Source of the DNA: an uncultured Anaerolineaceae bacterium
GTDB lineage: Bacteria > Chloroflexota > Anaerolineae > Anaerolineales > E44-bin32
Direction: 5' to 3'
Assembly (NCBI GenBank): GCA_964591485.1
Contig: CAZQDE010000005.1
Location: 6,625-70,624 of the forward strand
Length of the DNA: 64,000 bases
Made by a program: the position numbers and the translations under genes. This document shows, piece after piece, positions 24,839 through 61,242 of this stretch. The first letter of the stretch is position 1. Each line of letters opens with the position of its first letter. The notes beneath the pieces are model-generated. The model was not told where the DNA came from. It did not search any database and worked only from the letters and a program-made list of their open reading frames with translations.

Positions 24839-25342
24839 TTAGGCGGGATCCTTCATGTCCGGTATGGCGCGCTCATAGGATCCCGCGGGCACTTTCTGCG
24901 GCGTGGGTTTGCCCCCAGGGGGAACTGGCACCAAGAGCAAGTCCTTGGTGTAGATTGCCTCCCGGCGGCTTGTGAAGGAAAGCTCGTAATGATGCTCGAG
25001 CACGATGGCACCTGTCGGGCAGGCGTCCTGGCAATAACCGCAGAAGATGCAGCGGAGCATGTTGATCTCGTAGGTGCTGGCATAGCGCTCACCAGGCGAG
25101 TAGCGGGCCTCGTCCGTGTTTTCAGATGCCTCCACGAAGATGGCATCCGCCGGACATGCCGCCGCGCACAGCGCGCAGCCGATGCACTTTTCGAGGCCAT
25201 TTTCATAGCGCTTCAGCTCATGCCGGCCCTTGAAGCGCGGCCGCACCGGCCGTTTGACCTCCGGATACTGGTAGGTGACCGGAGGCTCGAACATGCTCTT
25301 GAAAGTCGTCCATAGACCTCGCAGCACTTCCAAAGGGTTCAT
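24839..25342 (-). CDS. nuoI: NADH-quinone oxidoreductase subunit I (2x[4Fe-4S] ferredoxin-type)
   Basis: CIGCALCAAACP and CIFCGYCQDACP cluster motifs. I chose the ATG at 25342 (MNPLEVLRGLW), which forms an ATGA overlap with the nuoH stop. The track start at 25534 would overlap nuoH extensively. Confidence 0.93.
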   Translation of the reverse strand: MNPLEVLRGLWTTFKSMFEPPVTYQYPEVKRPVRPRFKGRHELKRYENGLEKCIGCALCAAACPADAIFVEASENTDEARYSPGERYASTYEINMLRCIFCGYCQDACPTGAIVLEHHYELSFTSRREAIYTKDLLLVPVPPGGKPTPQKVPAGSYERAIPDMKDPA

Positions 25343-37401: not shown

Positions 37402-40395
37402 CTAGAAGCCTTCCACCTTGGAAAGATCCACCACACCCCGCGCTCGGGCCACAATACGCTGGACCAGCGCAAGGCGATTGGCCCGTAGGGCCTCATCTTC
37501 CGCCATGACCAGCACCTCGTCGAAGAAGCGCGTAATCGCGGGTTTCAAGGCCTCGATCTCGGCCAGGAAATCCCGCACAGAGCCGGCCCGACGTTCTCGC
37601 GCCTCGACATCCAGGATGGCCTGATAAAGCGCCTTTTCGGCCTCTTCCACCAGCCTCGCCGGATCCACCTGCACATCCTTGGCCTCACCGCGCGCAATCC
37701 GTGCACAACGGGCGTAGGCCTGTAGGATTTCCATCCAATCCGCGCGGCCTCGCCAGGTCTCGAACTCGGCGATGGCAGCTGCGGCGCGCGCCGGCCGGAC
37801 ACCTTGCTCAGCGAGAACCGCCGCCACCGCATCGTGCCGGTGACCCTGCTCACGAAAGGCGATTTCCTCCCGCGTGAGGATGAATTCGAGGCAAGCCTCA
37901 AGCACCTCATCCCCAACCTGAATGGGCTGCAGTTCCGCCGCCAGGCCCAGTGCCTCATCTAGATCAAGATCCCAGCCCGACACGACCAGAATTTGGATCA
38001 GGCCGATCGCCGTCCGGCGCAGCGCGAAAGGATCCTTCCCGCCCTTTGGTTGGTGGCCCGCGGCGAAGAGCCCAATCAGCGTATCCAGGCGGTCGGCCAC
38101 GCCAAGGACAATGCCCGGCGCTGAGGCGGGCAGCGCATCTCCAGCATAGCGAGGCAGGTAATGCTCATAGATCGCCTGCGCCACCCCCTCGGATTCGCCC
38201 GAGCGAAGCGCGTAGACGCGTCCCATTTCCCCTTGCAGGGAGGTCATCTCGATGACCATCTGAGTCGCCAAATCCGCCTTGCAGAGATGGGCGGCTCTCA
38301 GCGCCGTCTCCGCATCCTCGGCGTTCAGGCCATACCGTCCAGCCAACTGGCGAGTCAGCGCCTCCACACGGGCCGTCTTTTCGCGCATCGAGCCCAAGGC
38401 CGACTCGAAGGTCAGCGTCTCCAGCCGCGGCAGGTAGGCCTCCAGCGGTTTCTCGAGATCGCGACGGAAGAAGTAATCCGCATCGGCGAAGCGGGCCCGA
38501 AGGACATGCTCGTTGCCCCGGGCCACCGTATCCAGATGTTCGTCGCCCCCATTGCGAACGGTTATGAAGTACGGCAGGAGCTTGCCCTCACGCTCCACCG
38601 GGAAATAGCGTTGGTGCACCCGCATCGCCGTGACCAAGACCGCGCGCGGCAGTGAAAGGAAGCTTTCATCGAAGGAGCCTCGCAAGGCCGTTGGTCGCTC
38701 TACAAGCCCCGTGACTTCCTCCAGCAGCGCCGGGTCATCCGGGATCGAGCCGCCCACTTCCTCCGCCAGGCTCTGCGATCGCTCGCGGATCTTTGCCTTC
38801 CGCTCGGCAGGATCGAGCACGATGCCGCTAGCCTCCATCGCTTCCAGATAGCCTCGGGGACTATCCAGTTCGACCGTTTCCGGCTCGGAAAGACGCAGCA
38901 GGCGCGTGATACGTCCGGCCTGGAGACCGGCAAAACCCAGCGGTACCACGTGCTCGCCGTGCAATGCCACGATCCAGCGCACGGGCCGGGAGAAGGAGGT
39001 CTTGGTTGCATCCCAACGCATGGTCTTCTCGAAGCGCAACCCACCTAGAATCGCCGGAAGCTTTTCCGCAAGCACCTCATCCGCGCTGCGGCCAGGCTTG
39101 CAAACTTCCGCCACAATGTAGCGGCCGCCATCGATTTCCTGCACGCGAAGCGCATCCAGATCGACGCCCCGGCTTCGAGCGAAGCCCTCGGCAGCCTGGG
39201 TGGGCCGGCCCTCCGCGTCGAAGGCCTTATCCGCCGGGGGGCCCTTCTGCAGCGTGACCTGCTCTTCCTGTTGTGGAGCCAGATCCTTGACCATCACAAC
39301 CAGCCGGCGCGGCGTGCCCATCACCTGGACCCCGCCGTGGTGCAAGCACTCCGCATCCAGCATGGCGGCCACTTGCTCCTCGAGTTGTTCGAGGGCCATG
39401 GCCAGATCGGCAGCCGGGAGCTCCTCGCTGCCGAGTTCGAGCAAGAAGTCGGCCGCCGACTCCGGAGTCGGACCCGGATCGGGTGCCTCTTGAAGGGCCC
39501 TCTTGATCGCCCAGCGCCCGATCCAAGGGAAGCCCTCGCTCTCACGTTGTTCCAGGTACAGGTCCGTCACGCGGCGCGCCAGGTCCCGCATCCGCGCAAA
39601 CAGCGCGGCTCGCTCACTCACGCCCACCGCGCCGCGCCCATCCAGCAGATTGAAGACATGCGAGCATTTCAGCACATAATCATGCGCCGGGAAGACCAGC
39701 CCGGCATCCAGGCAGTTGTTCGCCTCGGCCTCGAATTCTGCGTACATCGTGCGCAGGCGCTCGACATCCGCAACTTCGAACGTGTAGCGGCTGTGCTCGC
39801 GCTCCGACTGCAGATTCACCTCGCCATACGTCACATAGGAATTCCAGGGTAACTCAACGAAGTTCTCGACGCCCAGCAAGGCCAGCAGGATGCGCTCCAG
39901 ACCGTAGGTGATCTCGACCGATACCGGGTCGAGAACCTTTCCGCCAGCCTGCTGGAAGTATGTGAATTGGGTGATCTCCTGGCCATCCAGCCATACTTCC
40001 CACCCAAGACCCCAAGCGCCCAAGGCAGGCTGCTCCCAGTTGTCCTCCACGAAACGGATGTCATGCGCCGCTGGATCGATCCCGAGTGCAAGCAGGGATT
40101 GCAGATAGCGTTCCTGCGGATCGCCAGGGTCGGGCTTTAGGATGACCTGGAATTGATAGTAGTGACCCCAGCGGTTGGGGTTCTCGCCATAGCGGCTATC
40201 AGTGGGGCGGATCGAAGGCTCCACGTACGCCACCCACCAATCCTCCGGTCCCAGGACGCGCAGGAAGGTAGCGGGGTTCATCGTGCCGGCACCCACCTCG
40301 GTGTGATAGGGCTGCCAGATCAGGCAGCCCTGGTCCGCCCAGAAGGCCTGCAGTTTCAGGATAATCGATTGAAGCGTGGCTTGCTTAGGGTCCAA
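37402..40395 (-). CDS. glyQS: Glycine--tRNA ligase, alpha and beta subunits fused in one 997-aa polypeptide
   Basis: The N-terminal ~290 aa are GlyQ-like ([44 protein letters not shown]...[10 protein letters not shown]). They continue without a stop into a GlyS-like region ([13 protein letters not shown]...LHGEHVVPL...) of about 700 aa. Confidence 0.92.
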
Positions 40396-44940: not shown

Positions 44941-46032
44941 CTAAACCCCGAACTGCCTTGCCAGGGGAGGGACATGGCCCTCACGGCCTTGATAGAGCCA
45001 GCAACGTACTGCGCGGCCCGAAGGGGCGCGGATCCAATCCGGCATATAGTGCTCGCATACTTCCAGCGATAATTTCCTGCGCGCCTCACAGCGGGGGGCG
45101 AAGCGGCACCCTGGAGGAATATCCGCCGGATCGGGCACCGTGCCCGGAATGGCGCGCAATGGCCTGTGATCAGGCGGGGGAAGCGAGGCCAATAGTCCCT
45201 GCGTGTAGGGATGGAGCGGATTGCGAAAAATGTCCACCACCTCAGCTTCTTCCACCAGTTGACCCGCGTAGAGGACTCCAATCCGGTCGGCGTTGCCTGC
45301 CATCACGCCGAGATCATGCGTAATGAGGAGCATCGAGGTCGCCTGCGCCACGCGCAACCGCCGGAGGATCTCCAGGATCTGGGCCTGAATGGTGGGGTCG
45401 AGCGCGGTGGTGGGTTCGTCGGCGATGATCAGGTCCGGCTGCATTGCAAGCGCCATGGCGATCATCACGCGTTGTGACTGCCCCCCAGAGAGCTCATGTG
45501 GATAGCTGCGCATGCGCTGTTGGGCATCTGGAATTTCCATCTGGCTCAGGAGGTCTTTCGCTTGCGTCCATGCCTCCTGGCGGCCCAGGCCGCGGTGAAT
45601 CTGCAGCACCTCCGCCAGCTGGCTACCGATGCTGAAGACCGGATTCAATCGCACTTGGGGATCCTGAAAAATCAGGCAGATGCGGTCCCCGCGCAGCGAA
45701 GCCCAGCCGGCCTCATCCAGTTCGAGTAGCGCAAGCCCATCGAAGCGGATTTTTTCAGCCACCACCTCGCCCGGTGGCTCGATCAGGCCCATGATGGAGA
45801 GGGCAGTGACTGTCTTGCCGGAGCCAGATTCGCCCACAAGACCATAGGCCTCGCCCCGCCGGATGAAGAAGTCGACCCCATCGACTGCCCGCACAATCCC
45901 GCGCGGCAGGCGAAAATGGGTCCGCAGCCCTTCCACCTCAAGCAAGAGTGAACTGGCATCGGCCACGGAAAGGCTATCTCTTCCAGGATGAGATTGAAGA
46001 CCTTGCGGCGAGCAGTGTGAGTTGAGACGCAT
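44941..46032 (-). CDS. Opp/Dpp-type ABC transporter ATP-binding protein (third ATPase of the locus)
   Basis: Walker A GESGSGKT, signature LSGGQSQR and Walker [15 protein letters not shown]-terminal oligopeptide-ATPase extension carries CRFAPRC. I chose the ATG at 46032, which forms an ATGA overlap with the stop of the fused permease gene. Confidence 0.9.
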   Translation of the reverse strand: MRLNSHCSPQGLQSHPGRDSLSVADASSLLLEVEGLRTHFRLPRGIVRAVDGVDFFIRRGEAYGLVGESGSGKTVTALSIMGLIEPPGEVVAEKIRFDGLALLELDEAGWASLRGDRICLIFQDPQVRLNPVFSIGSQLAEVLQIHRGLGRQEAWTQAKDLLSQMEIPDAQQRMRSYPHELSGGQSQRVMIAMALAMQPDLIIADEPTTALDPTIQAQILEILRRLRVAQATSMLLITHDLGVMAGNADRIGVLYAGQLVEEAEVVDIFRNPLHPYTQGLLASLPPPDHRPLRAIPGTVPDPADIPPGCRFAPRCEARRKLSLEVCEHYMPDWIRAPSGRAVRCWLYQGREGHVPPLARQFGV

Positions 46033-49000
46033 CAGTAGTCGATTTCGCGGCCCATGATCATCAACGCTAGCGCAACCGCCTTTCCGGCGCGCTCCAATTT
46101 TTCTTCGCTGATCTTCTCGACCACATCCGCGTTCGTCAGGGAATCCTGCTCCCATCCTTCCCACGAAACGAGGATGCGCGGCGCTTCCTCTGCGCTCTCC
46201 CTGGAGCTTCCTTGGCGGTATACAGCGCTCAGATCGATGTCGTCGCTTCGCATACTGATCGGCAGGCCCAATCGCCGCGTGACATCCTCGAAGAGGTCTG
46301 CCAGGCGCAAGCTGCCGCCGCTGAGCAATTCTATGCCCGCGCCCTCGCCTGCCCCGAGCCCGCGTAGCTCAACCACCGCCTCCGGAACCAGATTCCTGGC
46401 AAAGCCCGCCTTGGCCTGCAACAGCCGCGAGACCTCAGGCCGCGGAACCGGGAGGCCGGACTCCATCCCCTCCCCGCTATAGGCCACAAAGAGAAAGGTC
46501 CGCTTGGGCTGGTAGCCGCTCTCTTGCATGACCCGGATGGCCTCCAACAGGACCGCCACGCCGCTGGCGTTATCGTTGGCCCCCTGCGGGACCTCGCCAT
46601 CCGGCGGCAAAGGTGGCGCATCATACTTCGCCATGACGACAATCAAGCGCTCATCCATCTTGGTCGCACCGGTGGCCGCTTCACCAGGCCAATGCCCGAT
46701 GACGTGTTGCATGGGTTCCTTCTCATAGATCGTGCCTTCCACCTGCATCCCCACATCGACACCGGTTTCGACCTGCATGATCTCGTCCTGGACCAGCCGG
46801 CTGGCCTGCGAGCGAAGGCTCTGTACGGTCTCACCGGTCCTCTCCAGGATACGGTTGGCGAGTCCCTCGCTGATCATGAGGACAGGTGTTTCGCGACCAA
46901 TCTCCCGGCCGGTACCATAGATCCGGGCTCTAGCGCTGCGCGGTGAGAGCGTGAAGTTCCGTTGAAGATCGCGCGGATCTTCGGCGACTACGAGCGCACC
47001 GGCATGAGGGATCTCATGGAGATAGACAATATCATCCGGCGAGAGCACCATGAGAATCTCATCCTCAAAGCTGAGATCTTGCATCGCAGGATAATAGCCG
47101 TAGAAGCGTGTCCGCGTGGGGTCGCCGAAGGCCATCACCCGCACCGGTCCCAGGACTGCGCCCAAGCTGCGGAAGGGTGCGGCAAAGGCGTTGTAGTCGC
47201 GCCCATACACAGGCGGGCCGCCGCCGTCATCCACGACCAGGCAGGGCACCGCATCCAGACTTTCGAACTCCCGCTGGCGTGTTAGGAAGTAGGTCCCGCG
47301 CTGCCCGGCAGGTTGCAGGCCCAGATTCTCAAACTGGTCGGCTATCCATTGAGCTGCCACCTGCGGACCAAGCGTGCCCAGGGCTCTGCCCTCCACCGCC
47401 GGGGTGGTGAGCGCTTCGACCGTTCGTAGCGCGTTGGCACCGCTGAAGGCCTCCGCTCGCTCGCGGTAGATCGAGATGCTTCCGGTGCTGCCACGCAGCC
47501 AGGTCGCCCCAGCGACAAAGACAACCACCGCTGCCAGGCTATAGCGGTTGAATACCCGATGGAGGCGGACGCCCTCCTCGGTGACGAGCCTGCGCATCCC
47601 TTCGCCGAACAGGTTGAAGGCCAGGATGGCCAGGAAAAACGCCGTCGCCGGGTAGAATGCCGTCCATGGATAGCTCTGAGCGTAGAGGCGCACATTGCTC
47701 AACAGTGCCGCCCACTCCGGCACGTCGGAATAGTGATATGGAGGAGCGTCGATGATCAATTCTGCGTACGCGCCACCGCCGATGAAGACACCCACGAACC
47801 CCAGCTCGCCAAGGATCATCAACACTGCCCCCATCTCGAGTGCCGCCAGAGATAGCAGAGTAGGGACTAGATTGGGGAGCACATGTTTGGTGATGATGCC
47901 GGAAGTGCCGCGCCCGATGGCGATGGCGCTCTCGATGAAAGTCTTGGGGCGCATGGCGAGCACCTCGCCCCGGACGTACTGCATGATCTCACCCCAGCCG
48001 ATCAGGCCCAGCGCCACCAAAAAGGGCATAAAGCCGCGCCGGATCCCCATCGCCAGGATGAGGACCATCGCCAACAGCAGCGGCGGGTAGGCGAAGAGCG
48101 TCTCAGCAAGCCCCATAATCGCCCGGTCGAGCCAGCTATCCCTGCGCCAGCCCGCCAGCGCTCCCAAAATGAAGCCCACCGTCAGGCGCACGGCGACCAC
48201 CGCCGCCGCCAAGCGCATGGTCTGCCAGGCGCCCGCCATGACGAGACTCTTCACATCCCGTCCAAGCAAATCCGTTCCCCAGACATACTCCTCCCCGGGC
48301 TCAAAGGGCGGAATCAGGAACTCCCCATCCACGATTTGCAGGCCGAGCGTGGTGTACGGGTTTCTGGGCGCGAGCTTATGCCCCCAGAGCGTGACCACGA
48401 GCAGGCCGGCCACCGTAAGCCCGCCAAGGATCAATGGAAGGTTCACGAGAATGCTGCGAAGCAAGGGCTTGGGACGCGGCTCCTGAAGATGCGTCTCCAG
48501 CCCCTGGGTCTCACGGCGGGCCAGGATGGCCTTGAACGGGCTCTCGGATCGAGGGGCATTGCGCCTTCGAAGCCAGCGTGTCAGGGGATTCTCGCGCAGC
48601 AGCCCCACCAAACCTGCGCCCAGCTCCCGCAGCCACTCGCGCAGCGCCATGCGCTCCTCAAGACCCACCCGGTCCACCGTGCCCCGCAGGCGGGGGTCCA
48701 GCAAACGATAAAGCACATCCAACATTAGATTGACGACGATGAAGAGCGCGCCCAGGCAAAGCACCAGAATGACCGTGAGGTTGTCGTCCTGCTGGGAAAT
48801 ACCCCGCAGCAAATAGAAGCCGAGACCTGACCATCCGAAAAAGGCTTCCACGACGGGCAGGCTGCTGAGCGAGAAGCGCAAGGACAGTCCCACCGTGGTT
48901 ACAATGGGAATGGCTGCATTGCGCATTACATGTTTCCACATCACCCAGCGCGGGCCCAGGCCCTTGCTCCATGCGGTGCGAACGTAGTCCTGCTCATAGA

Positions 49001-49661
49001 TCTCCCGCACGCTCATGAAGGTCACACGGGCAACTTGCGCAATGGGACGCGCCGCCAGCACCAACATGGGCAAGACCAGATGCTCATCCCAGCCGAATCC
49101 ACCCACTGGAAGGAGCCGGTACCCAAGCGTCTGGGTGGAGCGAATGACCAGGCGCTGCAGGATGAAAGCCGCGAAGAAGCTCGGGGTGGAAATGCCGGCG
49201 ATGGAGAGCAGCAATATGAGCAAGGACCAGCCGGCCCGGCGTGCCCTCCCCGCCGCGATTCCCAGCAGGCCACCGATAAGCGTCGCCGCCAGGAGCGAGA
49301 GGCCCAGCAGGCCGAAGCTCCGCGAGAGCATGGCCGGGAAGGCCTCGCGGACGGGGATGGGATTCAGCGTGCTGCTGGCCGCGGTCGAGAGGCCCAGTTC
49401 GCCCGTGAGGACATTTATGATGGATTCGAGCGTGCGGCTGGCTGCGAGCTCGAAGGCTGCTTGCGCGCCAAGGTCACGCGCCATCGCCAGGCCAAAATGG
49501 GTCAGGTAAACGATCGCGAGCAAGATGATGGCGCCCGAGATAAGCCGGCGGCCGAGGTAGCCAATCCAACCCGTGAGGGCGCGTAGCCGCTCCGCGTCCA
49601 CACCGGTCAACCGCAGGATTTGCTTGGATGTCTGAGGTGATTCCGGCTCTTTTGACACCAC
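46032..49661 (-). CDS. Fusion protein: OppB/DppB-like permease + OppC/DppC-like permease + extra TM helix + PA/M28-peptidase-like extracytoplasmic domain (1209 aa)
   Basis: Uninterrupted ORF with a GTG start preceded by GAGGAG. The B-like part (about aa 30-327, nt ~48681-49661) has EQDYVRTAWSKGL..RNAAIPIVT and DVLYRLLDPRLRG. The C-like part (about aa 400-693, nt ~47583-48464) has GTDLLGRDVKS, ITKHVLPNLVP and FNLFGEGMRRL. A further TM covers aa ~706-722. The ectodomain (aa ~735-1209, nt ~46035-47460) has GANDNASGVAVLLEAIR in an M28-like context. Confidence 0.8.
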   Translation of the reverse strand: MVSKEPESPQTSKQILRLTGVDAERLRALTGWIGYLGRRLISGAIILLAIVYLTHFGLAMARDLGAQAAFELAASRTLESIINVLTGELGLSTAASSTLNPIPVREAFPAMLSRSFGLLGLSLLAATLIGGLLGIAAGRARRAGWSLLILLLSIAGISTPSFFAAFILQRLVIRSTQTLGYRLLPVGGFGWDEHLVLPMLVLAARPIAQVARVTFMSVREIYEQDYVRTAWSKGLGPRWVMWKHVMRNAAIPIVTTVGLSLRFSLSSLPVVEAFFGWSGLGFYLLRGISQQDDNLTVILVLCLGALFIVVNLMLDVLYRLLDPRLRGTVDRVGLEERMALREWLRELGAGLVGLLRENPLTRWLRRRNAPRSESPFKAILARRETQGLETHLQEPRPKPLLRSILVNLPLILGGLTVAGLLVVTLWGHKLAPRNPYTTLGLQIVDGEFLIPPFEPGEEYVWGTDLLGRDVKSLVMAGAWQTMRLAAAVVAVRLTVGFILGALAGWRRDSWLDRAIMGLAETLFAYPPLLLAMVLILAMGIRRGFMPFLVALGLIGWGEIMQYVRGEVLAMRPKTFIESAIAIGRGTSGIITKHVLPNLVPTLLSLAALEMGAVLMILGELGFVGVFIGGGAYAELIIDAPPYHYSDVPEWAALLSNVRLYAQSYPWTAFYPATAFFLAILAFNLFGEGMRRLVTEEGVRLHRVFNRYSLAAVVVFVAGATWLRGSTGSISIYRERAEAFSGANALRTVEALTTPAVEGRALGTLGPQVAAQWIADQFENLGLQPAGQRGTYFLTRQREFESLDAVPCLVVDDGGGPPVYGRDYNAFAAPFRSLGAVLGPVRVMAFGDPTRTRFYGYYPAMQDLSFEDEILMVLSPDDIVYLHEIPHAGALVVAEDPRDLQRNFTLSPRSARARIYGTGREIGRETPVLMISEGLANRILERTGETVQSLRSQASRLVQDEIMQVETGVDVGMQVEGTIYEKEPMQHVIGHWPGEAATGATKMDERLIVVMAKYDAPPLPPDGEVPQGANDNASGVAVLLEAIRVMQESGYQPKRTFLFVAYSGEGMESGLPVPRPEVSRLLQAKAGFARNLVPEAVVELRGLGAGEGAGIELLSGGSLRLADLFEDVTRRLGLPISMRSDDIDLSAVYRQGSSRESAEEAPRILVSWEGWEQDSLTNADVVEKISEEKLERAGKAVALALMIMGREIDY

Positions 49662-49782: not shown

Positions 49783-50718
49783 TTATGGATGGGCAGGCTC
49801 CCAGCGCGGATGGAAATCGTCGCCCGGGTGATGGGTCAGGCGCTGCACATCGGACCCATCCGCGTTCATGACATAGATTTCGATGTTGCCATCCCGGTCG
49901 GAGGTGAAGGCTATCTTCGAGCCATCAGGCGACCAGTCCGGGTCGCCATCGTTAGCGGGGTGATGGGTGATGTTGATCGGTTCCCCATCGCTCTCGAGGT
50001 CGAAGATATAGATCTCCATATTCCCTTCGCGATCGCTCATAAAGGCGATCTTGCCGCCATCCGGCGACCAAGCCGGATTGAGATCGCGGGCCGGATTCTG
50101 CGTTAGGTTCTGCACCTGCTCCTCATCGAGCAGGAGATAGATCTCGGAATTGCCATCCCGGACGGTCATGAACACGATCTGCTTGCCATCCGGAGACCAG
50201 GAGCCATACATATCCAGCCCCAGTTGGCCGGTGATGCGTTCAACCTCCCCACTCCCGTAGTCGATGGCCCACAGTTTGGGATTGTCGGGAATACGCACTT
50301 CACCGCCTTCCATAGGTATGGAGTAGCTGCGATTCGAGGCGAAGAGGATCCGCTGCCCATCCGGAGACCATTCGGGGACGACGTTAAAGCCGCCGCCATC
50401 CGTCAGTTGCTCCACCTGGGAGCCATCGACGGACATGACGAATATCTCGGGGTTGCCGGTACGCTCGGAGGTGAAGGCGATGCGCTGGCCATCCGGCGAC
50501 CATGCCGGAGTGCCGTCATAACCCTCGTTTTGGGTCAGGTTGATCAGCTCGGACCCATCTTCGTTCATGAGATAGACTTCAGCGTTGCCATCCCGATACG
50601 TCTCGAAGGCGATGCGCCGATTCTCCGGTGCCGCCTGGTTCCGGGAACAGGCCGCGAGCATCAACGCCAGCCCCACGGCGACGGCCCCAGCCCCTCGGTG
50701 CGAACCCAAAAGCTTCAT
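49783..50718 (-). CDS. PD40/TolB-like beta-propeller lipoprotein
   Basis: Signal peptide with lipobox MKLLGSHRGAGAVAVGLALMLAAC. Five clear WSPDG(x)(K/R)I(A/L/V)F repeats are separated by DG(N/S)xE(I/V)(Y/F) motifs. I chose the ATG at 50718 with AGAGGGAAG upstream. Confidence 0.85.
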   Translation of the reverse strand: MKLLGSHRGAGAVAVGLALMLAACSRNQAAPENRRIAFETYRDGNAEVYLMNEDGSELINLTQNEGYDGTPAWSPDGQRIAFTSERTGNPEIFVMSVDGSQVEQLTDGGGFNVVPEWSPDGQRILFASNRSYSIPMEGGEVRIPDNPKLWAIDYGSGEVERITGQLGLDMYGSWSPDGKQIVFMTVRDGNSEIYLLLDEEQVQNLTQNPARDLNPAWSPDGGKIAFMSDREGNMEIYIFDLESDGEPINITHHPANDGDPDWSPDGSKIAFTSDRDGNIEIYVMNADGSDVQRLTHHPGDDFHPRWEPAHP

Positions 50719-50818
50719 GCGCTTCCCTCTTAGCAAAAGGCTCGGCGCAGCCGAAAGGCCCCCGAGCCTTGAGCATTCCTCGCGAACGTTCCGATGCTAT
50801 GCTGCCTTTATCCGCCCC

Positions 50819-51862
50819 TTAGACCTCTCCCCGAAGCCGAGGATCGAAGGCGTCCCGGAGGCCGTCGCCGAGGAAATTGAAGGCCAGCGTCGTGAGCGTC
50901 AGGGCAACGGCAGGCACGAAGACCTCGTGGGGATAGGTTCGCAGCGCCTGATAGGTCTCTGAGATCATGATGCCCCAGCTAGGCGTGGGCGGGTTTACGC
51001 CCAGGCCAATGAAGCTCAGGAAGGCCTCCAGGAAGATATAGCCGGGGATCTGAAGCGTCTCGTAGACCACGCACGGACCCAGGATATTGGGCAGCAAGTG
51101 GCGCCCGATGATGCGCCAGTTGGAGGCGCCAACCATCCGGGCGGCTTCCACAAACTCCATCTCCTTGTACTGCAACGTTTGGCCACGGGCGATGCGAGCC
51201 ATGCCCAGCCAGTTCAGCAGGCCGATGGCGATGAACAGGAAGAAAATCCCGCCCATGGCCCGGTCGATATTGATCAGAGTTCCAGCCAGACCCTCGCCAC
51301 CGCCATGGCGGGAGAGAGCCTTGAAGTAGACCTGCATCAAGATGATGAAGATGATGATCGGGAATCCATAAAGGAAGTCCACGAAACGCATCATCAGGTT
51401 GTCGGTCCGCGTGCTGGAGTAGCCTGAGATAAGCCCGTAGGTAATGCCGACGATCAGGCTCACCGTGGCGGCGACGATCGCCACGGCCAGGGAGACGCGC
51501 GCCGCATACAACGTGCGGCTCAGGATATCCCGGCCCAGATAATCCACGCCGAAGATGTAGAAATCCCCCTCCTCAGTCCGTGTGAACAGACCTTCATTGG
51601 GGTGGAGAAAATCCACTTCGGCGTAGTGGTAGGGCGCCAACAAAGGTTCAGGCTTCCCACCGGTGAAGATCGTGAAAATCGAGGTGTCCACGAAGATCGC
51701 CACCAGCGTGAGCAGGATGAGGAAGATGCCGCTGGCCACAGCCAGACGGTTGCGCAGAAGCTGGCGCCATGCATCCTTCAGCGGGCTGCGACCAGCCCGC
51801 AGTTCCTCCTCGGGCTTGAGCGCCTCGGGGCCTGAGCCCTGGGATGAGTTCTCAGCCGTCAT
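50819..51862 (-). CDS. Opp/Dpp-type ABC transporter permease (C-type)
   Basis: FGVDYLGRDILSRTLYAARVSL, ARMVGASNWRIIGRHLLPNILGP and FNFLGDGLRDAFDPRLRG. GGAGG lies upstream of the ATG. Confidence 0.9.
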   Translation of the reverse strand: MTAENSSQGSGPEALKPEEELRAGRSPLKDAWRQLLRNRLAVASGIFLILLTLVAIFVDTSIFTIFTGGKPEPLLAPYHYAEVDFLHPNEGLFTRTEEGDFYIFGVDYLGRDILSRTLYAARVSLAVAIVAATVSLIVGITYGLISGYSSTRTDNLMMRFVDFLYGFPIIIFIILMQVYFKALSRHGGGEGLAGTLINIDRAMGGIFFLFIAIGLLNWLGMARIARGQTLQYKEMEFVEAARMVGASNWRIIGRHLLPNILGPCVVYETLQIPGYIFLEAFLSFIGLGVNPPTPSWGIMISETYQALRTYPHEVFVPAVALTLTTLAFNFLGDGLRDAFDPRLRGEV

Positions 51863-51907
51863 TCAACCTCCAAGTCCATGGATTGGGTTTGGAGCCGGCC
51901 AACCGGC

Positions 51908-52882
51908 TCAGTCGTAGCGGATTCTCGGGTCCAGCCAGGCGTAGGTGACGTCCACCACAAGGTTGGCGATGACCAAGAGAACCGAGTAGAGCAGCGTGAC
52001 ACCCATGACGATGGGATAGTCGCGATTGTTAACACTATCGACGAAGTGCTGCCCCATGCCGCTGATCCCGAAAATCTGTTCGACCACAAAGGTGCCAGTT
52101 ACGATGGCGGCGAACAACGGGCCGATGATCGTCACAACCGGGATCAGCGCATTCTTCATGGCGTGCACCCAGATCACCACCCGTTCCTTGAGCCCCTTGG
52201 CGCGCGCCGTGCGGATGTAGTCCTCGCGGATGACTTGCAGCAAGCTGGCGCGCGTCAGCCGTGCGATCGACGCCGAGATGCCTGTGCCCAGTGCAACCGT
52301 CGGCATGGCCGCGTGGAGCCAGAAATCGGCCGTCAGGGGCGGCAAGATGCCGAAGATGAACTGGGTGTAATCGGCGCCCCAGCGCGCCACAGGAAACCAA
52401 CCCAATCTCAGGCCGAAGATCCATACCAAGAACGGCGCCAAGACGACATTCGGGATCGATACGCCCAGGATGGCCACAAAGGAGCTGACATAGTCCAGCG
52501 ACTTATTGTGGTTCAGGGCCGCGATCGTGCCCGCCGGGATCCCTATCGCCAGACCCAGCAGCATGGAGAGGATGCCAAGTTGGAAGGACACCGGGAAGGT
52601 CTGCCGCAGGATATCCTGCACCATCAGCGACCGATACCGGAAGGAGGGCCCCAGATCGCCACGCAGGAGATCCAGCACCCATTGGCCGTATTGGCGCCAG
52701 ACAGGCCAATCGAGGTGGTATTTCTTCTCGAGATTAGCGACTACGCTGGCCGGGATGGTGCGATCCCCAGCGAAGTCGAACGGGCCACCCGGCATCGCTC
52801 GCGCCAGGACAAAAGTTACCAGGGTGATGCCAATAAGAACGGGAATAAACCAAAGAATTCTGCGGATGATGTAACGGGTCAT
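51908..52882 (-). CDS. Opp/Dpp-type ABC transporter permease (B-type)
   Basis: MTRYIIRRILWFIPVLIGITLVTF, REDYIRTARAKGLKERVVIWVHAMKNALIPVVT and VDVTYAWLDPRIRY. I chose the ATG at 52882. Confidence 0.9.
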   Translation of the reverse strand: MTRYIIRRILWFIPVLIGITLVTFVLARAMPGGPFDFAGDRTIPASVVANLEKKYHLDWPVWRQYGQWVLDLLRGDLGPSFRYRSLMVQDILRQTFPVSFQLGILSMLLGLAIGIPAGTIAALNHNKSLDYVSSFVAILGVSIPNVVLAPFLVWIFGLRLGWFPVARWGADYTQFIFGILPPLTADFWLHAAMPTVALGTGISASIARLTRASLLQVIREDYIRTARAKGLKERVVIWVHAMKNALIPVVTIIGPLFAAIVTGTFVVEQIFGISGMGQHFVDSVNNRDYPIVMGVTLLYSVLLVIANLVVDVTYAWLDPRIRYD

Positions 52883-52982
52883 TTCACTCCCTGCGGCAAA
52901 GCGTTTGTCATGTGGAGCCCGGTGGGCGAAGGGCGGGCTGGTGGCCAGGGAGCCCCTAACCACCAGCCCTGCCGGTAGATCG

Positions 52983-54845
52983 CTACCTCATCGCCGCCGT
53001 CTTGGCGTCCATATCCAGAGTCCACTGGAAGAGCGACAACTGGATCGGATCATAGGACCGATGCAGCCACGGTTTGGTGACGTTCACGGTCGTGTAGAAG
53101 TACATGGGAGCGATGCCGACGATCTCATCGACGAGCAATTGCTCGGCTCGCTTGTAGAGCGCCTTGGCTTCCTCTTCGTCAGCGACCTGCGCGGCCTTAG
53201 TGGTCTCGTCGTATTCCTTGACCAGATCACCGACCTGCGGGTCGTCGTAGCTCAGGCGGATGCGGTTGGCGCCTTCTTCGGTGTTGAAGACCTCATGCAA
53301 CCAGTTGTTGGCGTGCGGGTAGTCTCCACACCAGCCGAGGCGGAACACGTGCGGCACGTCCTCGATCGCCGTGGTGGCACGGATCGTGTCGAGGTAGACG
53401 CGCCACTCCTGCGTCTCAATGCTGACCGTCATCCCGGGGAAGGCTTCCTGCCACATGGCCTGGACGGCCTGGGCGATGCGGGCGTGGCCCTCGCTGACAT
53501 TGTGCATCAACAGGATGTCCAGACCCTCGCCATCCGGGTAGCCAGCCTCGGCGAGCAACGCGCTGGCCTCTTCCTTCGCCTTGGCGTAGCCCCAGCCGCC
53601 CATGTCCTCAGGCAGCGCCCAGGGCGCGATCTCAGGATCGCCGCCCCAGGAGCCGAAGTTGAGCGGGTTGGTGAAGGCGTTGGCCGGAATCTGGCCGCCC
53701 TTCAGTACCGCATCGACCAGCGTCTTGCGGTCGATGCCCATGGAGAGCGCCTTGCGCACCTTGACATCGTTCACCGGAGCCTTCTCGGTGACAAAGCCGT
53801 AGTAGTAGGTGCAGTTGACCGGTGAGTTTACGAATTCCTTGCTCAGCACGGGATCGGCCTTCACGCGGTCGATCTGATCGGAGGGCACACCGGAGGTGTC
53901 GATCTCGTTGTTCTCATACATGGCGAAGGTGGTGGAGTCCTCCTCGATCATGTAGCCAACGAGCTGCTCGATGTTGCCCGAGCCGTAGTCGGTGCCCCAG
54001 TAGGGCCAGAAGGGGTTCTTGGCCAGGTTCATGTGATCGCCGTGAACCCACTCGGTCATCACGTAGGCTCCATTGGTCACGATGAAACCCGGCTCGATCC
54101 AGCGGTCACCCTTCTCTTCGATGATGGGCTGGTAGACCGGGAACAGGTTGGCCATCGTGGTGACCTGCGGGAAGTAGCCAGCGCCGTAGGCCAGGGTGAT
54201 CTTCACGGTGTAGTCGTCCAGGGCCTCCACGCCCATGGCATCATACACTTCCTGGAAGTTCTCGGCCTCGGGATCGGTCGTGTTTAGCTCCTCGCAGCCG
54301 GAGATGACGTAGAGCAGCCAGGCGTAGTCGGAGGCGGTGTTGGGATCGCAGACGCGCTTGATGCCATAGACCACATCGTGCGCATTCACCATCCGCGGGT
54401 TGCCCTCGTCATCCAGCACCTGCTCGACCTCGCCGGCGGTGGGGTTGTAGCGGACCCAGGGCACGTCATCGCGCAGATGGAACGTCCACTCGATCTTATC
54501 CTCGGTGGCCTCCCAGCTCTCAGCTAAGGCAGGGATAGCCTGCTTGGTCTCGAGATCGATGTCCGTCAGCCCCATGAAAATGGAGTCGATCACCGAGGAG
54601 GAGGTGGTGTCCGTCGTCAACGCCGGATCTGCGGTCGGCGGCTCGGTGCCCCAGTTGTAGTGAACGGTGACGGGCATCGGGCCAGCGGCCTCCGGCGTCG
54701 CGGTGACGACCCTCTCAACGACCTCACCCTCGACGACCTCTGTGACCACCACGGTCTTCACGACTTCCTGCGGCGCGCCGCAGGCAGCCAGAATCATGCT
54801 GGCAGCCACGCCGATGGCCATCAAAGTAAATAGCTTTCGCTTCAT
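52983..54845 (-). CDS. ABC transporter substrate-binding lipoprotein, family 5 (peptide/nickel type)
   Basis: Lipoprotein signal MKRKLFTLMAIGVAASMILAAC. The ~600-aa body shows family-5 features (GTEPPTADPAL...; ...NPFWPYWG...). I chose the ATG at 54845, preceded by GGAGAAGAGG. Confidence 0.88.
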   Translation of the reverse strand: MKRKLFTLMAIGVAASMILAACGAPQEVVKTVVVTEVVEGEVVERVVTATPEAAGPMPVTVHYNWGTEPPTADPALTTDTTSSSVIDSIFMGLTDIDLETKQAIPALAESWEATEDKIEWTFHLRDDVPWVRYNPTAGEVEQVLDDEGNPRMVNAHDVVYGIKRVCDPNTASDYAWLLYVISGCEELNTTDPEAENFQEVYDAMGVEALDDYTVKITLAYGAGYFPQVTTMANLFPVYQPIIEEKGDRWIEPGFIVTNGAYVMTEWVHGDHMNLAKNPFWPYWGTDYGSGNIEQLVGYMIEEDSTTFAMYENNEIDTSGVPSDQIDRVKADPVLSKEFVNSPVNCTYYYGFVTEKAPVNDVKVRKALSMGIDRKTLVDAVLKGGQIPANAFTNPLNFGSWGGDPEIAPWALPEDMGGWGYAKAKEEASALLAEAGYPDGEGLDILLMHNVSEGHARIAQAVQAMWQEAFPGMTVSIETQEWRVYLDTIRATTAIEDVPHVFRLGWCGDYPHANNWLHEVFNTEEGANRIRLSYDDPQVGDLVKEYDETTKAAQVADEEEAKALYKRAEQLLVDEIVGIAPMYFYTTVNVTKPWLHRSYDPIQLSLFQWTLDMDAKTAAMR

Positions 54846-54995
54846 GGCGTCCTCTTCTCCTTCCAAAGAGTTTCGCTTCGCAACGGCTTTTCTCGATGTT
54901 CGCTTTTCTTCTCCTTGCCTTCTGCGATGGCTTCACCTCCTTTCATCACATCATCTCCATCCTTGAATAGCTTCCCTGATCCCCCTCCGGAACCC

Positions 54996-55979
54996 TCAAA
55001 CCAAGTGGCAGGCCACCCAATGGTCCGGGGCGACCTCGCGCCACTCGGGCTCCACCTCTTTGCAGACATCGACCGCCAGCGGGCAGCGCGGATGGAACCG
55101 GCAGCCGCGCGGCGGGTTGGCGGGGCTGGGCACGTCACCCTCCAGGATGATCCGCTGGCGCTTGGCCTCCTTCAACGGATCCGGGATCGGAACCGCGCTC
55201 AGCAAGGCCTGCGTGTAAGGGTGCAACGGGTGGGAGTAGAGCTCATCTCGCGTGGCCAGCTCCACCACCTTGCCCAGATACATCACCGCCGTCCGGTCCG
55301 AGATATGGCGGACCATGCTCAGGTCGTGGGCGATGAACAGATACGTCAACCCGAAGGTCGCCTGCAATTCCTCGAGAAGATTCACGACTTGCGCCTGAAT
55401 AGAGACATCCAGGGCCGAGATCGGCTCGTCACAAACGATGAACTCGGGCTGCAGGGCCAATGCCCGGGCCACGCCGATGCGCTGGCGCTGTCCACCACTG
55501 AATTCATGCGGATAGCGATTCACAAAGTGGGGGCTCATACCGACGAGCTGCAGCAATTCCTGCACCCGTTCCCGCCGCTCTCGGGCGTTTCCGATTCCAT
55601 GCACTTCGAGCGGCTCGGCGATGATGGCACCGACAGTGAGGCGAGGATTCAAGGATGCATAGGGGTCTTGAAAGATCATCTGCATGTTGCGCCGCATGCG
55701 GCGCAGCGCCTCACCCTTCAGTGTAGTCAGGTCCATATCGCCATAGTAGACCTTGCCCGCCGTGGGCCGGTAGAGCTGGAGAATGGTGCGGCCAGTGGTC
55801 GACTTCCCACAACCGCTCTCGCCTACCAGGCCCAGCGTCTCGCCCTTGCGGATCTCGAAGGAAACGTTATCGACCGCCTGAACCGCTCCGACCTGGCGCT
55901 GGATCACGATGCCGCGCGTGATTGGAAAATGCTTGGTCAGGTGATCCACCCGAATGAGGGTTCCATTTGAACTGGTCAT
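54996..55979 (-). CDS. Opp/Dpp-type ABC transporter ATP-binding protein (F-type)
   Basis: Walker [10 protein letters not shown], signature FSGGQRQR and Walker [13 protein letters not shown], with a C-terminal CRFHPRC motif. It overlaps the upstream ATPase gene by 4 nt. Confidence 0.92.
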
Positions 55980-56965
55980 CGCAACTCCCCGGTCTCGATA
56001 TCAACCCAGCAGGCAATCCGGTGGTCAGAATTGATATCTACCAATTGGGGATTAGCCTGCCAGCATTTGTCTTTCACGAACATGCAGCGCGGCGCGAAGG
56101 GACAGCCGGTGGGGAATTCGTAGTTCTCGGGCGGAAGGCCCTCGATCGACATCAACTTCTCGCCCGGGCTTCCATCCATGCGGGGGAGGCTTTTTAGAAG
56201 CGCGAAGGTATAGGGATGGCGCGGGTTACCGTAGACCTCTGCGATCGGCGCCTCCTCCACGATGAAGCCTGCGTACATCACGATCACACGATCCGCTAGC
56301 CCTGCGACCACGCCCAGGTCGTGCGTGATCCAGATCAGCGACATGCCGAACTGGTCCCTGAGCCGCTTCACCAGATCGACGATCTGGGCCTGGATGGTCA
56401 CATCGAGCGCTGTGGTGGGTTCATCGGCGATCAGCAGGGCCGGATTGCACGCCAGGGACATGGCGATCATCGCACGCTGGCGCATCCCGCCACTGAATTG
56501 ATGCGGGTAATCGTCCAGCCGGGCGCGGGCTTCCGGGATGCCGACCAGATGAAGCAGCTCCGCGGCTCGCTCCCGGGCCTCATCCTCGCTCATGCCCAGG
56601 TGCACACGCAGCGGCTCCATGATCTGGAACCCGATGGTCAACACGGGGTTCAGGCTGGTCATGGGGTCCTGGAAGATCATGGCGATTTGAGAGCCGCGGA
56701 TATCGCGCATCTCGTCCTCGCTGACCTTGGTGATATCGCGATCCCCAAAATAGATGCTCTCGGCTTGAACCTCGCCCGGAGGCTGAGGGATCAAACGCAT
56801 CACCGATAAAACAGAGACGCTCTTGCCGCAGCCACTTTCGCCGACGATACCGAGCGTCTCCCCCTCCTCTACATGGAATGAAACCCCATTCACCGCGTAG
56901 ACTGTTCCGTCTTGGGTGTGAAAGCGGGTTTGCAGATCGTTGACATCTAGGACTTTCGGCGCCAA
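55976..56965 (-). CDS. Opp/Dpp-type ABC transporter ATP-binding protein (D-type)
   Basis: Walker A GESGCGKS, signature FSGGMRQR and Walker [13 protein letters not shown], with a C-terminal CPFAPRC motif. The TTG start at 56965 is preceded by GGAGAGGAG. Confidence 0.92.
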
Positions 56966-57342: not shown

Positions 57343-57702
57343 CTAGAAGACAAAGCTGAAGAGTCCCACCCCTAGTGATACCGTGCCTTGCGTAAGGAAG
57401 CGCTCCGGCAGCGGAGCAGCTTGGGGGCGCCGGCTCGTGAGGCCTGCGTCGCCCGCCGGCAAGTATAGCACAGGCTGCATGGCCATATCAACCGGCATGA
57501 GAATGATTGTATAGAGCACCCACCGCAGCAACTCCTGCAGCCCGCGGGGCCTTCCCGGCGCGGCCAAGGAAATCGGCCCGGCTGCGCGCTGCAGCAAGCC
57601 CTCACGCCCATAGCGGGGCAGTGGGATCGATGAAACCCAGGCCTTCAGCAGGTGGCTCAAATGGCGGTCTATGGGATCGGATCCGGGATCAACCTGCTTC
57701 AT
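57343..57702 (-). CDS. Hypothetical membrane protein immediately downstream of an ECF sigma gene (possible anti-sigma factor)
   Basis: The ORF overlaps the sigma gene end by 14 nt if it starts at the ATG at 57702 (MKQVDPGSD...). Hydrophobic segments are LLRWVLYTIILMPVDMAMQPVLYL and VSLGVGLFSFVF. There is no recognisable anti-sigma motif, and the start is uncertain (the track gives 57738). Confidence 0.4.
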   Translation of the reverse strand: MKQVDPGSDPIDRHLSHLLKAWVSSIPLPRYGREGLLQRAAGPISLAAPGRPRGLQELLRWVLYTIILMPVDMAMQPVLYLPAGDAGLTSRRPQAAPLPERFLTQGTVSLGVGLFSFVF

Positions 57703-58270
57703 AGAGTACTCGGAGGATGGCTTCCTCATGGGCACCAAGCTGCTTTCTTAATACCTTCCGCGCATAGTGTAGTCGCGACTTGACCGTTCCAGATGGTATC
57801 TCCAGGATGTCCGCGATCTCCTGGATCGACAGATCATTGATGTAGTAGAGCACAACCACCAGCCGCTGCTGAAGCGGCAACCCCTGAATGGCCTGCCGCA
57901 CCCAGCGCCACGATTCATCCCACTCTGCGATGCGGTGCGGCGCAGTCCTCTGATTGCTCGTCCAGTGGTCCGCTAATTCCCGGAAAAGCTGCACCCAGCG
58001 GCTCTGCCGCTTGAGCCAGGTGTAGGACAAATTGGCAGTCATGCGATAGAGCCAGGGCTCGAGCGGCCGGTGTGGGTCAGCCCTGTGCGAGAAACGGTAG
58101 AGGCGCAGAAAGACCTCTTGCAGCAGGTCGGCCGCCATCTCTGGATCCCCCGTGATGGCAAGCGCCGTCCGGAAGACTAGGTGTCGATGTCGATCGTAGA
58201 GAACACCCAGTGCCTCCAGATCCCCCGCTTGGAGTTCCTTTACCAGCTCCCCGTCCAGAGCCTGTGTCAC
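57689..58270 (-). CDS. ECF-type RNA polymerase sigma factor (sigma-70 family group 4)
   Basis: LQAGDLEALGVLYDRHRHLVFRTALAITGDPEMAADLLQEVFLRLY is region 2. LSIQEIADILEIPSGTVKSRLHYARKVLR is the region 4 helix-turn-helix. Confidence 0.9.
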   Translation of the reverse strand: MTQALDGELVKELQAGDLEALGVLYDRHRHLVFRTALAITGDPEMAADLLQEVFLRLYRFSHRADPHRPLEPWLYRMTANLSYTWLKRQSRWVQLFRELADHWTSNQRTAPHRIAEWDESWRWVRQAIQGLPLQQRLVVVLYYINDLSIQEIADILEIPSGTVKSRLHYARKVLRKQLGAHEEAILRVLYEAG

Positions 58271-60346: not shown

Positions 60347-61080
60347 TTACCCCCTTCCTCTGGCTCTTCCAGGAGCTTGCGGTCGTTTGCATCCAACTCC
60401 AATCGGTTGAAAAGATCAGGACGCCGCTCACGAGTGCGGATCAGCGACATTTTCCGACGCCAGGCAGCGATGCGCGCATGATCGCCGGAGCGTAGAACCT
60501 CCGGGACCTCCCAGCCGCGGAAGACTGCCGGTCGGGTGTAGTGAGGATGCTCCAAAAGCCCTTCGGCGTGGGAGTCCTTGGCCGTCGCCTCCTCATCACC
60601 GAGCACGCCTGGCAAGTATCGGCTCACGGCGTCGATGATCACAAGCGCCGGCAGTTCTCCTCCCGTCAGCACAAAGTCCCCGATGGATATCTCATCCGTC
60701 GCCAGATGCTGGCGGATGCGTTCATCGACGCCCTCATAGCGTCCACAAATCAGCGCCAGCCGGTCACACCCGGCCAGCTCGCGGGCCACTGTCTGGTTAA
60801 ACATGCGGCCTTGGGGGGTCAGCAAGATGACGGGCGTTGTATTCAACCGCTCACCGAGCACGCTCTCGACCGCCGCGAACACCGGCTCAGGCTTCATCAC
60901 CATACCACCGCCCCCGCCGTAGGGCTCATCGTCCGTCGTGCGGTGGCGGTCGGTTGTGTAGTCGCGAATGTTGTGCAGGCAAACTTCGAGCCGCGAGGCC
61001 TCCTGCGCCTTGCCTAGCACGCTGGCGCGCAGGTAGACCTCCATGACCTCAGGCAAGAGAGTGAACACATCGAAACGCAT
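60343..61080 (-). CDS. trmD: tRNA (guanine37-N1)-methyltransferase
   Basis: MRFDVFTLLPEVMEVYL...DDEPYGGGGGMVMKPEPVF...LICGRYEGVDERI...ISIGDFVLTGGELPALVIIDAV are canonical TrmD motifs. I chose the ATG at 61080. Confidence 0.94.
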   Translation of the reverse strand: MRFDVFTLLPEVMEVYLRASVLGKAQEASRLEVCLHNIRDYTTDRHRTTDDEPYGGGGGMVMKPEPVFAAVESVLGERLNTTPVILLTPQGRMFNQTVARELAGCDRLALICGRYEGVDERIRQHLATDEISIGDFVLTGGELPALVIIDAVSRYLPGVLGDEEATAKDSHAEGLLEHPHYTRPAVFRGWEVPEVLRSGDHARIAAWRRKMSLIRTRERRPDLFNRLELDANDRKLLEEPEEGGK

Positions 61081-61242
61081 GCTCGGCGTCTCCAGGCCCG
61101 CATATGGCTGGTGGGGATGCTCTCGGCCGGCCAATGCGGGTGCTTGATTATAGCCGTCTTCTGACCTCTAAGGCAGCCAGCGATCGCCCGGCTCGCCTTG
61201 GTGCGGCTGCGATGCTGCCGCATTGAAAGGATTGGAGGGACT

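Follow-up and report, generated by a model that had tools for sequence, protein, structure and literature searches.

A fused Opp/Dpp-type permease of an Anaerolineaceae bacterium carries a degenerate M28-fold ectodomain that may act as a tethered receptor

We analysed a stretch of 64,000 nucleotides (the 64-kb window) from an uncultured Anaerolineaceae bacterium (GenBank assembly GCA_964591485.1, contig CAZQDE010000005.1, positions 6,625 to 70,624), in which a minus-strand open reading frame (ORF) of 1209 codons lies at 46032-49661. This ORF is predicted to encode a complete fused (B+C) membrane unit of an Opp/Dpp-type ATP-binding cassette (ABC) transporter, continued by a C-terminal extracytoplasmic domain of the M28 peptidase fold. 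A preliminary description of the same DNA had read the segment at 46035-47495, which corresponds to the last 487 codons (amino acids 723-1209) of this ORF, as a possible pseudo-peptidase used as a built-in receptor. The gene and its parts are as follows.

46032..49661, minus strand: whole gene, 1209 amino acids, fused DppB-like and DppC-like ABC permease, extra transmembrane helix and M28-like ectodomain (ORF; two Pfam BPD_transp_1 matches and one Peptidase_M28 match)
48684..49574, minus strand: DppB/OppB-like transmembrane domain, amino acids ~30-326, with the EAA loop 'QDYVRTAWSKGLG' (Pfam BPD_transp_1 stretch 130-326)
48453..48683, minus strand: Arg/Lys-rich cytoplasmic linker joining the permease halves, amino acids 327-403 (19 Lys and Arg residues in the 90-residue loop 314-403, the stretch between hydrophobic segments in a hydropathy scan)
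47577..48452, minus strand: DppC/OppC-like transmembrane domain, amino acids 404-695, with the EAA loop 'FIESAIAIGRG...HVLPN' (NCBIfam Opp2C/NikC-type matches over 454-692)
47496..47546, minus strand: extra (13th) transmembrane helix, amino acids 706-722, 'RYSLAAVVVFVAGATWL' (hydrophobic character kept in full-length homologues; translation checked)
46035..47495, minus strand: M28-fold ectodomain, amino acids 723-1209 (AlphaFold2 model; Foldseek)
46782..47255, minus strand: inserted beta-rich sub-domain, amino acids 803-960 (same position as the PA/apical domain of PaAP, 2EK8, BSAP, the transferrin receptor and GCPII)

The best NCBIfam matches of the first permease half (amino acids 81-326) were B-type permeases (OppB/Opp2B/NikB/GsiC) and those of the second half (454-692) were C-type permeases (OppC/NikC/GsiD); the family profile also matched the DppC/OppC chains 8z1v_B and 8j5q_C. 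With one B-type and one C-type domain and an EAA loop in both, the protein belongs with the transmembrane domains (TMDs) of type I ABC importers of the PepT (Opp/Dpp/Nik) family. It had been called a transporter half, a term that does not fit a chain that holds both TMDs with intact EAA loops and whose gene is probably coupled to an ATPase gene. Both EAA loops were kept in approximately 45 full-length homologues, and this family-wide conservation indicates that the TMDs of the fused protein still couple to ATPases. None of the NCBIfam scores exceeded 161 bits, far under the curated equivalog cutoffs of 300-590, so that neither permease half was assigned to a specific equivalog (nickel Opp2BC, GsiCD, DppBC or others) and the transporter substrate cannot be named.

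Amino acids 706-722 were hydrophobic in the same ~45 full-length homologues, and a conserved Arg/Lys-rich '...RxxNRYT' stretch stood just before them. DppC-type TMDs have an N-in/C-in topology, with a cytoplasmic C-terminus. Because permeases of this type end in the cytoplasm and a 13th helix follows, the M28-like domain is predicted to be extracellular; by the positive-inside rule and the known DppC topology, this helix would lead from the cytoplasm, where the DppC half ends, to the cell exterior. A cytoplasmic M28 domain had come into consideration when a 19-residue hydropathy window missed the last helix, and was rejected, since a hydrophobic segment of 16-20 residues after basic residues was conserved in all homologues.

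The proposed M28-like character of the segment at 46035-47495 was borne out by sequence, profile and structure searches. Pfam PF04389 (Peptidase_M28) matched residues 989-1064 (E 1.1e-11; 45.3 bits against a cutoff of 21.3), and AAP (1AMP) was matched by the single sequence (E 7e-8) as well as by the family profile (E 8e-17). In hhalign, comparison with a canonical M28 profile, made from 26 canonical M28 sequences and 2EK8, gave a probability of 99.9% and an E-value of 1.4e-34. An AlphaFold2 model of residues 723-1209 from 91 aligned sequences (mean predicted local distance difference test score, pLDDT, 92.4; predicted template modelling score, pTM, 0.91) found as its best Foldseek matches in the PDB the PA-insert M28 aminopeptidases PaAP of Pseudomonas aeruginosa (8AC9/8ACR), Aneurinibacillus 2EK8 and Bacillus subtilis BSAP (6HC6), with the transferrin receptor and GCPII next in the list (E 3e-22 to 1e-17 and TM-score 0.45-0.61 over all these matches). 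The family profile also matched nicalin (E 5e-8 over ~260 columns). The ectodomain is homologous to M28, and its membership of peptidase family M28, as a fold, is not in doubt.

Modelled alone (pLDDT 91.4), the inserted sub-domain gave no significant Foldseek match: 3iib was best at E 0.63, and the PA-containing structures 3i74, 4c86 and 4yn3 came at E 4-9. The Pfam search of the protein gave no PA (PF02225) match. For want of a significant structural match we do not call it a PA domain. The C-terminal element of the ectodomain is the final helix of the peptidase core (464-483 of 487). No match to a substrate-binding protein (SBP) family was found in it by Pfam or Foldseek searches, and its fold is that of M28, not that of a bilobed periplasmic binding protein.

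In PaAP, the zinc ligands are His296, Asp308, Glu341, Asp369 and His467, and the general base is Glu340 (PMC11313473). We numbered the columns after AAP, with ligands His97, Asp117, Glu152, Asp179 and His256 and general base Glu151, and checked the codons of the residues assigned to these columns in the DNA. The assignments were as follows.

46626..46628, minus strand: Lys1012 in 'MAKYD', column of His97 (AAP) and His296 (PaAP) (MAFFT, HMMER and hhalign agree)
46572..46574, minus strand: Asp1030 in 'GANDNASG', the retained bridging Asp (AAP Asp117) (phmmer against AAP)
46467..46472, minus strand: Glu1064-Gly1065 on AAP Glu151-Glu152, general base kept and ligand Glu changed to Gly (phmmer against AAP)
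46362..46364, minus strand: Arg1100 in 'ELRGLG', column of Asp179 (AAP) and Asp369 (PaAP) (MAFFT, HMMER and hhalign agree)
46194..46247, minus strand: loop 'SDDIDLSAVYRQGSSRES', amino acids 1139-1156, expected site of the SDH His (AAP His256) (no His; equivalence undefined)

These columns agree with what had been read by eye at the first four positions, namely His replaced by Lys, a retained bridging Asp, Glu-Gly in place of Glu-Glu and Asp replaced by Arg. HMMER, MAFFT and hhalign alike modelled a two-residue deletion after Glu1064 that takes out the ligand Glu. For the fifth column, the earlier reading of the SDH His as Asp1141 in 'SDD' was half right. The His is lost, and segment 1131-1167 of the query contains none, but Asp1141 is one of four mutually incompatible placements, the others being Arg1154 (MAFFT), Leu1144 (HMMER against 2EK8) and Val1147 (hhalign). 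Any single equivalent of His256 was therefore rejected, and the absence of a His is the safe statement. Residues 1142-1156 form the sole low-pLDDT loop of the AlphaFold2 model.

The sequence and profile comparison with M28 confirms, in the aligned columns, that four of the five zinc ligands are lost from the query, as had been proposed; the loss of the fifth ligand is firm, and the residue that replaced it is not assignable. The query retains one of the five ligands of an active co-catalytic metallopeptidase, together with the general-base Glu. The term pseudo-peptidase has stood up well: with four ligands absent, Q/K-D-E-G-R fixed instead, and a Pfam match that spans only profile positions 4-66 of 193, compared with 1-191 in intact relatives, the ectodomain is very probably non-catalytic.

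The same pattern was found across the family. A word-indexed search with the domain returned 122 matches at up to 55% identity, nearly all of them from Chloroflexota/Anaerolineae assemblies where the organism was given, and an exhaustive search of 50%-identity cluster representatives returned 105 matches at E<=1e-30. Many representatives were 1160-1330 amino acids long with a C-terminal M28 domain, for example P0121, P0122 and P0125 (exactly 1209 amino acids), and the loci L003, L004 and L006 were alike. A look-up of the exact protein sequence in public assemblies returned no entry. Ligand columns were counted in 115 close homologues. The His97 column held Gln in 94, Lys in 15 and His in two (P0009 and P0054); the Asp117 column held Asp in 109; Glu151 was matched by Glu in 114 and Glu152 by Gly in all 115; and the Asp179 column held Arg in 103, His in four and Gln in four. 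No His occurred in columns 1142-1161 among 83-84 homologues. The signature Q/K-D-E-G-R was present in 108 + 10 of the 337 domains surveyed, and the former active-site motifs (Y-D, N-D-N-A-S-G and E-G) were among the few columns that were at least 90% invariant, forming the best-conserved part of the domain. This pattern indicates that the former zinc site has been replaced by a new conserved signature rather than having merely decayed. A second clade of fused B+C-M28 proteins (L008-L017, ~30% identity) was degenerate too, with another signature, Y-D-G/-,E/G-S.

Public records list the homologues under two names, 'M28 family peptidase' and 'peptide/nickel transport system permease', of which the first is probably wrong about activity in the query clade. 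This matters where peptidase inventories of Anaerolineae, which are abundant in sludge, sediments and digesters, serve to infer protein degradation.

The following genes flank the fused gene.

44941..46032, minus strand: DppD/OppD-type ABC ATPase, 363 amino acids (Pfam ABC_tran and oligo_HPY; NCBIfam DppD/OppD-like)
49783-50736, minus strand: PD40/TolB-like beta-propeller protein with a lipobox-like N-terminus, between the opp operon and the fused gene
50819-56965, minus strand: complete canonical Opp-type operon directly upstream of the fused gene (ATPases 55976-56965 and 54996-55979; SBP_bac_5 52983-54866; OppB 51908-52963; OppC 50819-51862)
58373-60346, minus strand: orphan SBP_bac_5 gene, 657 amino acids, lacking its own permease and located between the genes for an ECF-type sigma factor (57689-58270) and TrmD (60343-61134)

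The ATG of the ATPase gene overlaps the stop codon of the permease-M28 gene (TGATG at 46030-46034), and the two genes are probably translationally coupled. The ATPase translation shows Walker A, signature and Walker B motifs. A longer ATPase ORF of 407 amino acids (from 46164, with 44 extra N-terminal codons inside the permease gene) was rejected, and the ATG at 46030-46032, which shares bases with the stop codon, was taken as the start instead. The operon consists of the fused TMD gene and one ATPase gene and contains no SBP gene, so a cognate cluster-C SBP (SBP_bac_5) is lacking there. Among syntenic loci, L083 has the same fused gene and single ATPase, with no SBP in the operon, and L001 has no ATPase.

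The transporter had been called SBP-less, which describes the operon but not the window: SBP_bac_5 genes lie at 52983-54866, in the adjacent opp operon, and at 58373-60346, and use of an SBP in trans is possible. Both belong to other transcription units and lie upstream, at distances of 3.3 and 8.7 kb. The fused permease might use the orphan SBP as a partner in trans, but this SBP was not found near the fused gene in other loci. The PD40 beta-propeller lipoprotein was rejected as a conserved component, as it had no counterpart in any related locus. Within 10 kb of the fused gene, an SBP gene was absent in 20 of 23 related loci and present in three, and an ABC ATPase gene was present in four; opp operons lay near the fused gene in L008 and L084. 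An all-versus-all comparison of neighbours in the 23 loci revealed no conserved partner gene. The fused gene was the only conserved unit, and shared neighbours were housekeeping genes (Mfd, UvrB) or encoded proteins without a Pfam family. No second M28 gene was found within the window.

Elsewhere in the window, glycyl-tRNA synthetase is encoded as an alpha-beta fusion of 997 amino acids at 37402-40395 on the minus strand (tRNA-synt_2e, tRNA_synt_2f and DALR_1), a minority arrangement among bacteria that is also present in the syntenic locus L001. AT skew is strongly positive (0.16-0.25) across positions 18000-26000, a stretch of minus-strand genes that includes one for a NuoL-type complex I subunit (21899-23968; Proton_antipo_M/N); the probable cause is the composition of genes for membrane proteins. 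A plus-strand ORF of 557 amino acids at 8870-10543, without a Pfam match, lies antisense to GroEL (9185-10816, minus strand; Cpn60_TCP1, 543 amino acids) and must almost certainly be regarded as a shadow ORF, of which the six-frame list of this high-GC genome contains many.

More distant relatives of the fused protein carry M28 domains that look alive, or pair dead domains with such domains. Three permC-only-M28 fusions of ~820 amino acids (P0116, P0244 and P0263), like the giant two-M28 proteins described below, could be recognised as homologous to the query domain at 26-30% identity, and the three matched the Pfam M28 profile end to end (positions 1-191; 121-147 bits). The ligands are intact as H-D-E-E-D in P0116 and P0244, the latter with SDH as well, and P0263 reads H-D-E-E-E. 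Permease fusions with intact ligands and a full Pfam match support descent from an active tethered enzyme. The simplest reading is that the ancestor would have been an active aminopeptidase tethered to a peptide permease, and that catalysis was lost later, possibly more than once.

Dead and canonical domains are joined in P0142 (1679 amino acids), in which a fused B+C permease is followed by a dead M28 domain (Y-D-G-E-S) and then by a canonical one that matches the whole Pfam profile. In the operons of L022, L026 and L029, permB is followed by permC-M28 with degenerate ligands and then by a protein of ~2000-2100 amino acids; in L024, a fused permease-M28 gene has a 1725-amino-acid protein of the two-M28 kind immediately downstream. 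The giant two-M28 proteins (L029 6770-13102, L022 8492-14569, L026 6872-13219 and L024 11131-16308) span ~1700-2100 amino acids, and Pfam matched an N-terminal DUF418 membrane domain and two M28 domains in that of L029. Their first M28 domain is canonical (HDEE(D) and SDH) in L022, L024 and L029 and reads H-D-G-E-D without SDH in L026. In the second, the general-base Glu is changed to Gln in L022, L026 and L029, and L024 reads H-Q-E-E-D. The arrangement of permB, permC-M28 and a giant M28 protein represents an uncharacterised operon type in Anaerolineae.

Two further observations concern the fused gene in other assemblies. It occurs as two tandem copies in the same orientation in L008 (3-6890) and L011 (3985-11443), both from metagenome-assembled genomes (MAGs) of Anaerolineales/Chloroflexia. 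It is split into 2-4 overlapping ORFs in L002, L005, L016, L018, L019, L083, L084 and L085, which are MAG or long-read assemblies. The splitting probably results from frameshifts in the assemblies and not from pseudogene formation; in L084, the genes next to it are broken up likewise.

We favour the reading that the ectodomain is a pseudo-peptidase that acts as a peptide-capturing receptor at the mouth of the transporter, and for this statement as a whole we estimate a probability of roughly 0.45. An active aminopeptidase tethered to a peptide permease, comparable to P0116 and P0244, would have lost catalysis and kept binding. The side chains of Lys or Gln and of Arg would take the place of the metals, where they would form pairs with the retained Asp and Glu and balance their charge, and the old substrate cleft would become a metal-free pocket that still recognises peptides or amino acids by their charged termini. 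Positioned a few residues from the permease on its outer side, the ectodomain could then capture peptides at the mouth and pass them to the TMDs, with transport powered by the co-transcribed DppD-like ATPase or, in most relatives, by ATPases encoded elsewhere. Circumstantial support comes from the predicted location outside the cell, the operon without an SBP, the absence of an SBP beside the gene in 20 of 23 loci and the conservation of the former active-site motifs. In PaAP, the cleft between the PA and peptidase domains is opened by a rotation of ~40 degrees, and the PA domains of other proteases recruit substrate (PMC11313473).

In its boldest form, which we regard as doubtful, the receptor would make this a PepT-family importer that works without an SBP: the metal-free, aminopeptidase-derived domain would have replaced the OppA-type SBP, and a hinge between the inserted sub-domain and the core would give the open/closed signal that normally comes from a bilobed SBP. 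If true, the disabling of an enzyme would have provided type I ABC importers with a receptor for a second time, independently of the first.

Several points weigh against a receptor. PepT-family type I importers depend on bilobed SBPs, and to our knowledge there is no precedent for an M28 fold as a substitute. Two SBP_bac_5 genes lie near the fused gene in the window, and opp operons are close by in L008 and L084. A neighbouring ATPase was missing from 19 of the 23 related loci, so the genes for partner proteins must often lie elsewhere, and the lack of an SBP nearby carries less weight as an argument. The conservation of NDNASG and E-G could be purely structural, at strand ends and helix caps. 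The replacement of metals by side chains and the geometry of the pocket are proposals drawn from sequence columns. Finally, dead permease-tethered domains often stand beside live M28 domains in the wider superfamily, which suggests a scaffold role instead.

In such a role, which we rank second and consider possible though less likely than a receptor, the dead domain would bind a protein partner rather than substrate. This could be a conventional OppA-type SBP, a contact comparable to that between the periplasmic P2 loop of MalF and the maltose-binding protein, or else a live M28 aminopeptidase from a gene at another locus. With a live enzyme as partner, the dead/live pair could couple extracellular trimming of peptides to their uptake. 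SBP genes close to the fused gene, as seen in the window, in L008 and in L084, are compatible with docking, as are the dead and canonical domains in the single chain of P0142 and the degenerate permC-M28 proteins encoded upstream of a giant M28 protein in L022, L026 and L029, with a canonical first M28 domain in L022 and L029 and a similar pairing in L024. However, the window contains no second M28 gene, no partner gene is conserved beside the query clade in the 23 loci, and the most conserved residues appear to lie in the former catalytic cleft, not on an obvious new surface. The ectodomain might alternatively be a structural or regulatory appendage without a specific ligand. It could gate the permease entrance sterically or filter by size there, stabilise the fused TMDs, or be an evolutionary relic. 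Nicastrin has been argued to act as a steric gate in gamma-secretase, and the profile match to nicalin, a ligand-less M28 homologue and subunit of a membrane complex, points the same way; the different degenerate signature of the L008-L017 clade also implies that no single replacement chemistry is required. Nevertheless, a relic is difficult to reconcile with ~490 residues that more than 100 clusters keep at 40-55% identity together with a fixed new signature, and the former ligand positions, with their invariant Gly and 90% Arg, suggest that the pocket itself is under selection. We therefore place these options third and regard them as rather improbable.

That the domain is still an enzyme, which would trim peptides before import as a single-metal or metal-free hydrolase built from Asp1030, Glu1064, Asp1014, Lys1012 and Arg1100, seems very improbable. 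The general-base Glu in 114 and the bridging Asp in 109 of the 115 close homologues, the His kept in the His97 column by P0009 and P0054, and the 'M28 family peptidase' label in public records would fit with activity. On the other hand, the mononuclear glutaminyl-cyclase branch of the M28 fold keeps Asp, Glu and His, whereas the query has neither the Glu ligand nor a His, and its Pfam match is confined to positions 4-66 of 193. The query also has no counterpart of Tyr466, which precedes the second His of PaAP and completes its active site. We rank residual catalysis last because four of the five ligands are absent here and loss of a single one already inactivates PaAP, as in the mutants D308A and D369A (PMC11313473).

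Should the dead domain indeed serve as the receptor, the family would offer a clean series from enzyme to receptor in one lineage, from a live tethered peptidase through a dead and live pair to a dead domain alone. A bilobed binding protein would then no longer be a general requirement of Opp/Dpp-type importers. Our literature searches found no description of an M28 domain on an ABC permease.

The PA-containing M28 aminopeptidases (PaAP, AM-1 2EK8 and BSAP/YwaD, with a core like that of Vibrio AAP) have the same fold and the same domain order as the query, that is, N-terminal helices, an inserted domain and an alpha/beta peptidase core, and they share with it the NDNASG motif, the bridging Asp and the general-base Glu. 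Unlike them, the query has lost four di-zinc ligands (both His, the ligand Glu and one Asp), its inserted domain has no significant PA match alone, and it is the C-terminal part of a 13-helix ABC permease rather than a secreted enzyme. The canonical OppABCDF/DppABCDF transporters (8J5Q, 8Z1V and the operon at 50819-56965 in the window) have homologous TMD halves, EAA loops and a DppD/OppD-like ATPase with oligo_HPY. In contrast to these, the query joins B and C in one chain, adds a 13th transmembrane helix and a 487-residue ectodomain, and is encoded in an operon that has a single ATPase gene, where theirs have two, and lacks an SBP gene. P0116, P0244, P0263 and the DUF418-M28-M28 giants also join an M28 module to a peptide permease, and none has been characterised; P0116, P0244 and P0263 differ from the query in being permC-only proteins of ~820 amino acids, with H-D-E-E-D kept in P0116 and P0244.

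Nicalin and nicastrin are non-catalytic M28 relatives; nicastrin was absent from our match lists. Like these two proteins and the transferrin receptor, the query would be a membrane-anchored M28-derived ectodomain without metal ligands, of a kind used or proposed for binding or gating; it differs from all three in being bacterial, in being fused in cis to a transporter and in its replacement residues. The transferrin receptor is a non-enzymatic relative of M28B (PMC10794815). In our searches, its matches covered only part 369-514 of the profile and no stretch passed the threshold on its own, and the query lacks the C-terminal helical dimerisation domain of the transferrin receptor and GCPII, so that its architecture is not that of M28B.

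Receptor domains fused to the TMDs of ABC importers are known from GlnPQ (PMC8025302) and OpuA (PMC7673798), and a fused receptor suits cells that have no outer membrane to retain a soluble SBP (PMC8025302, PMC7673798). As in the query, an extracytoplasmic domain is tethered to the TMD of a type I importer; theirs has the bilobed SBP fold, whereas that of the query has the M28 fold and its binding of substrate is proposed. The family described here combines the principle of an M28-derived pseudo-enzyme, known in eukaryotes, with that of a receptor-fused ABC importer, known in bacteria.

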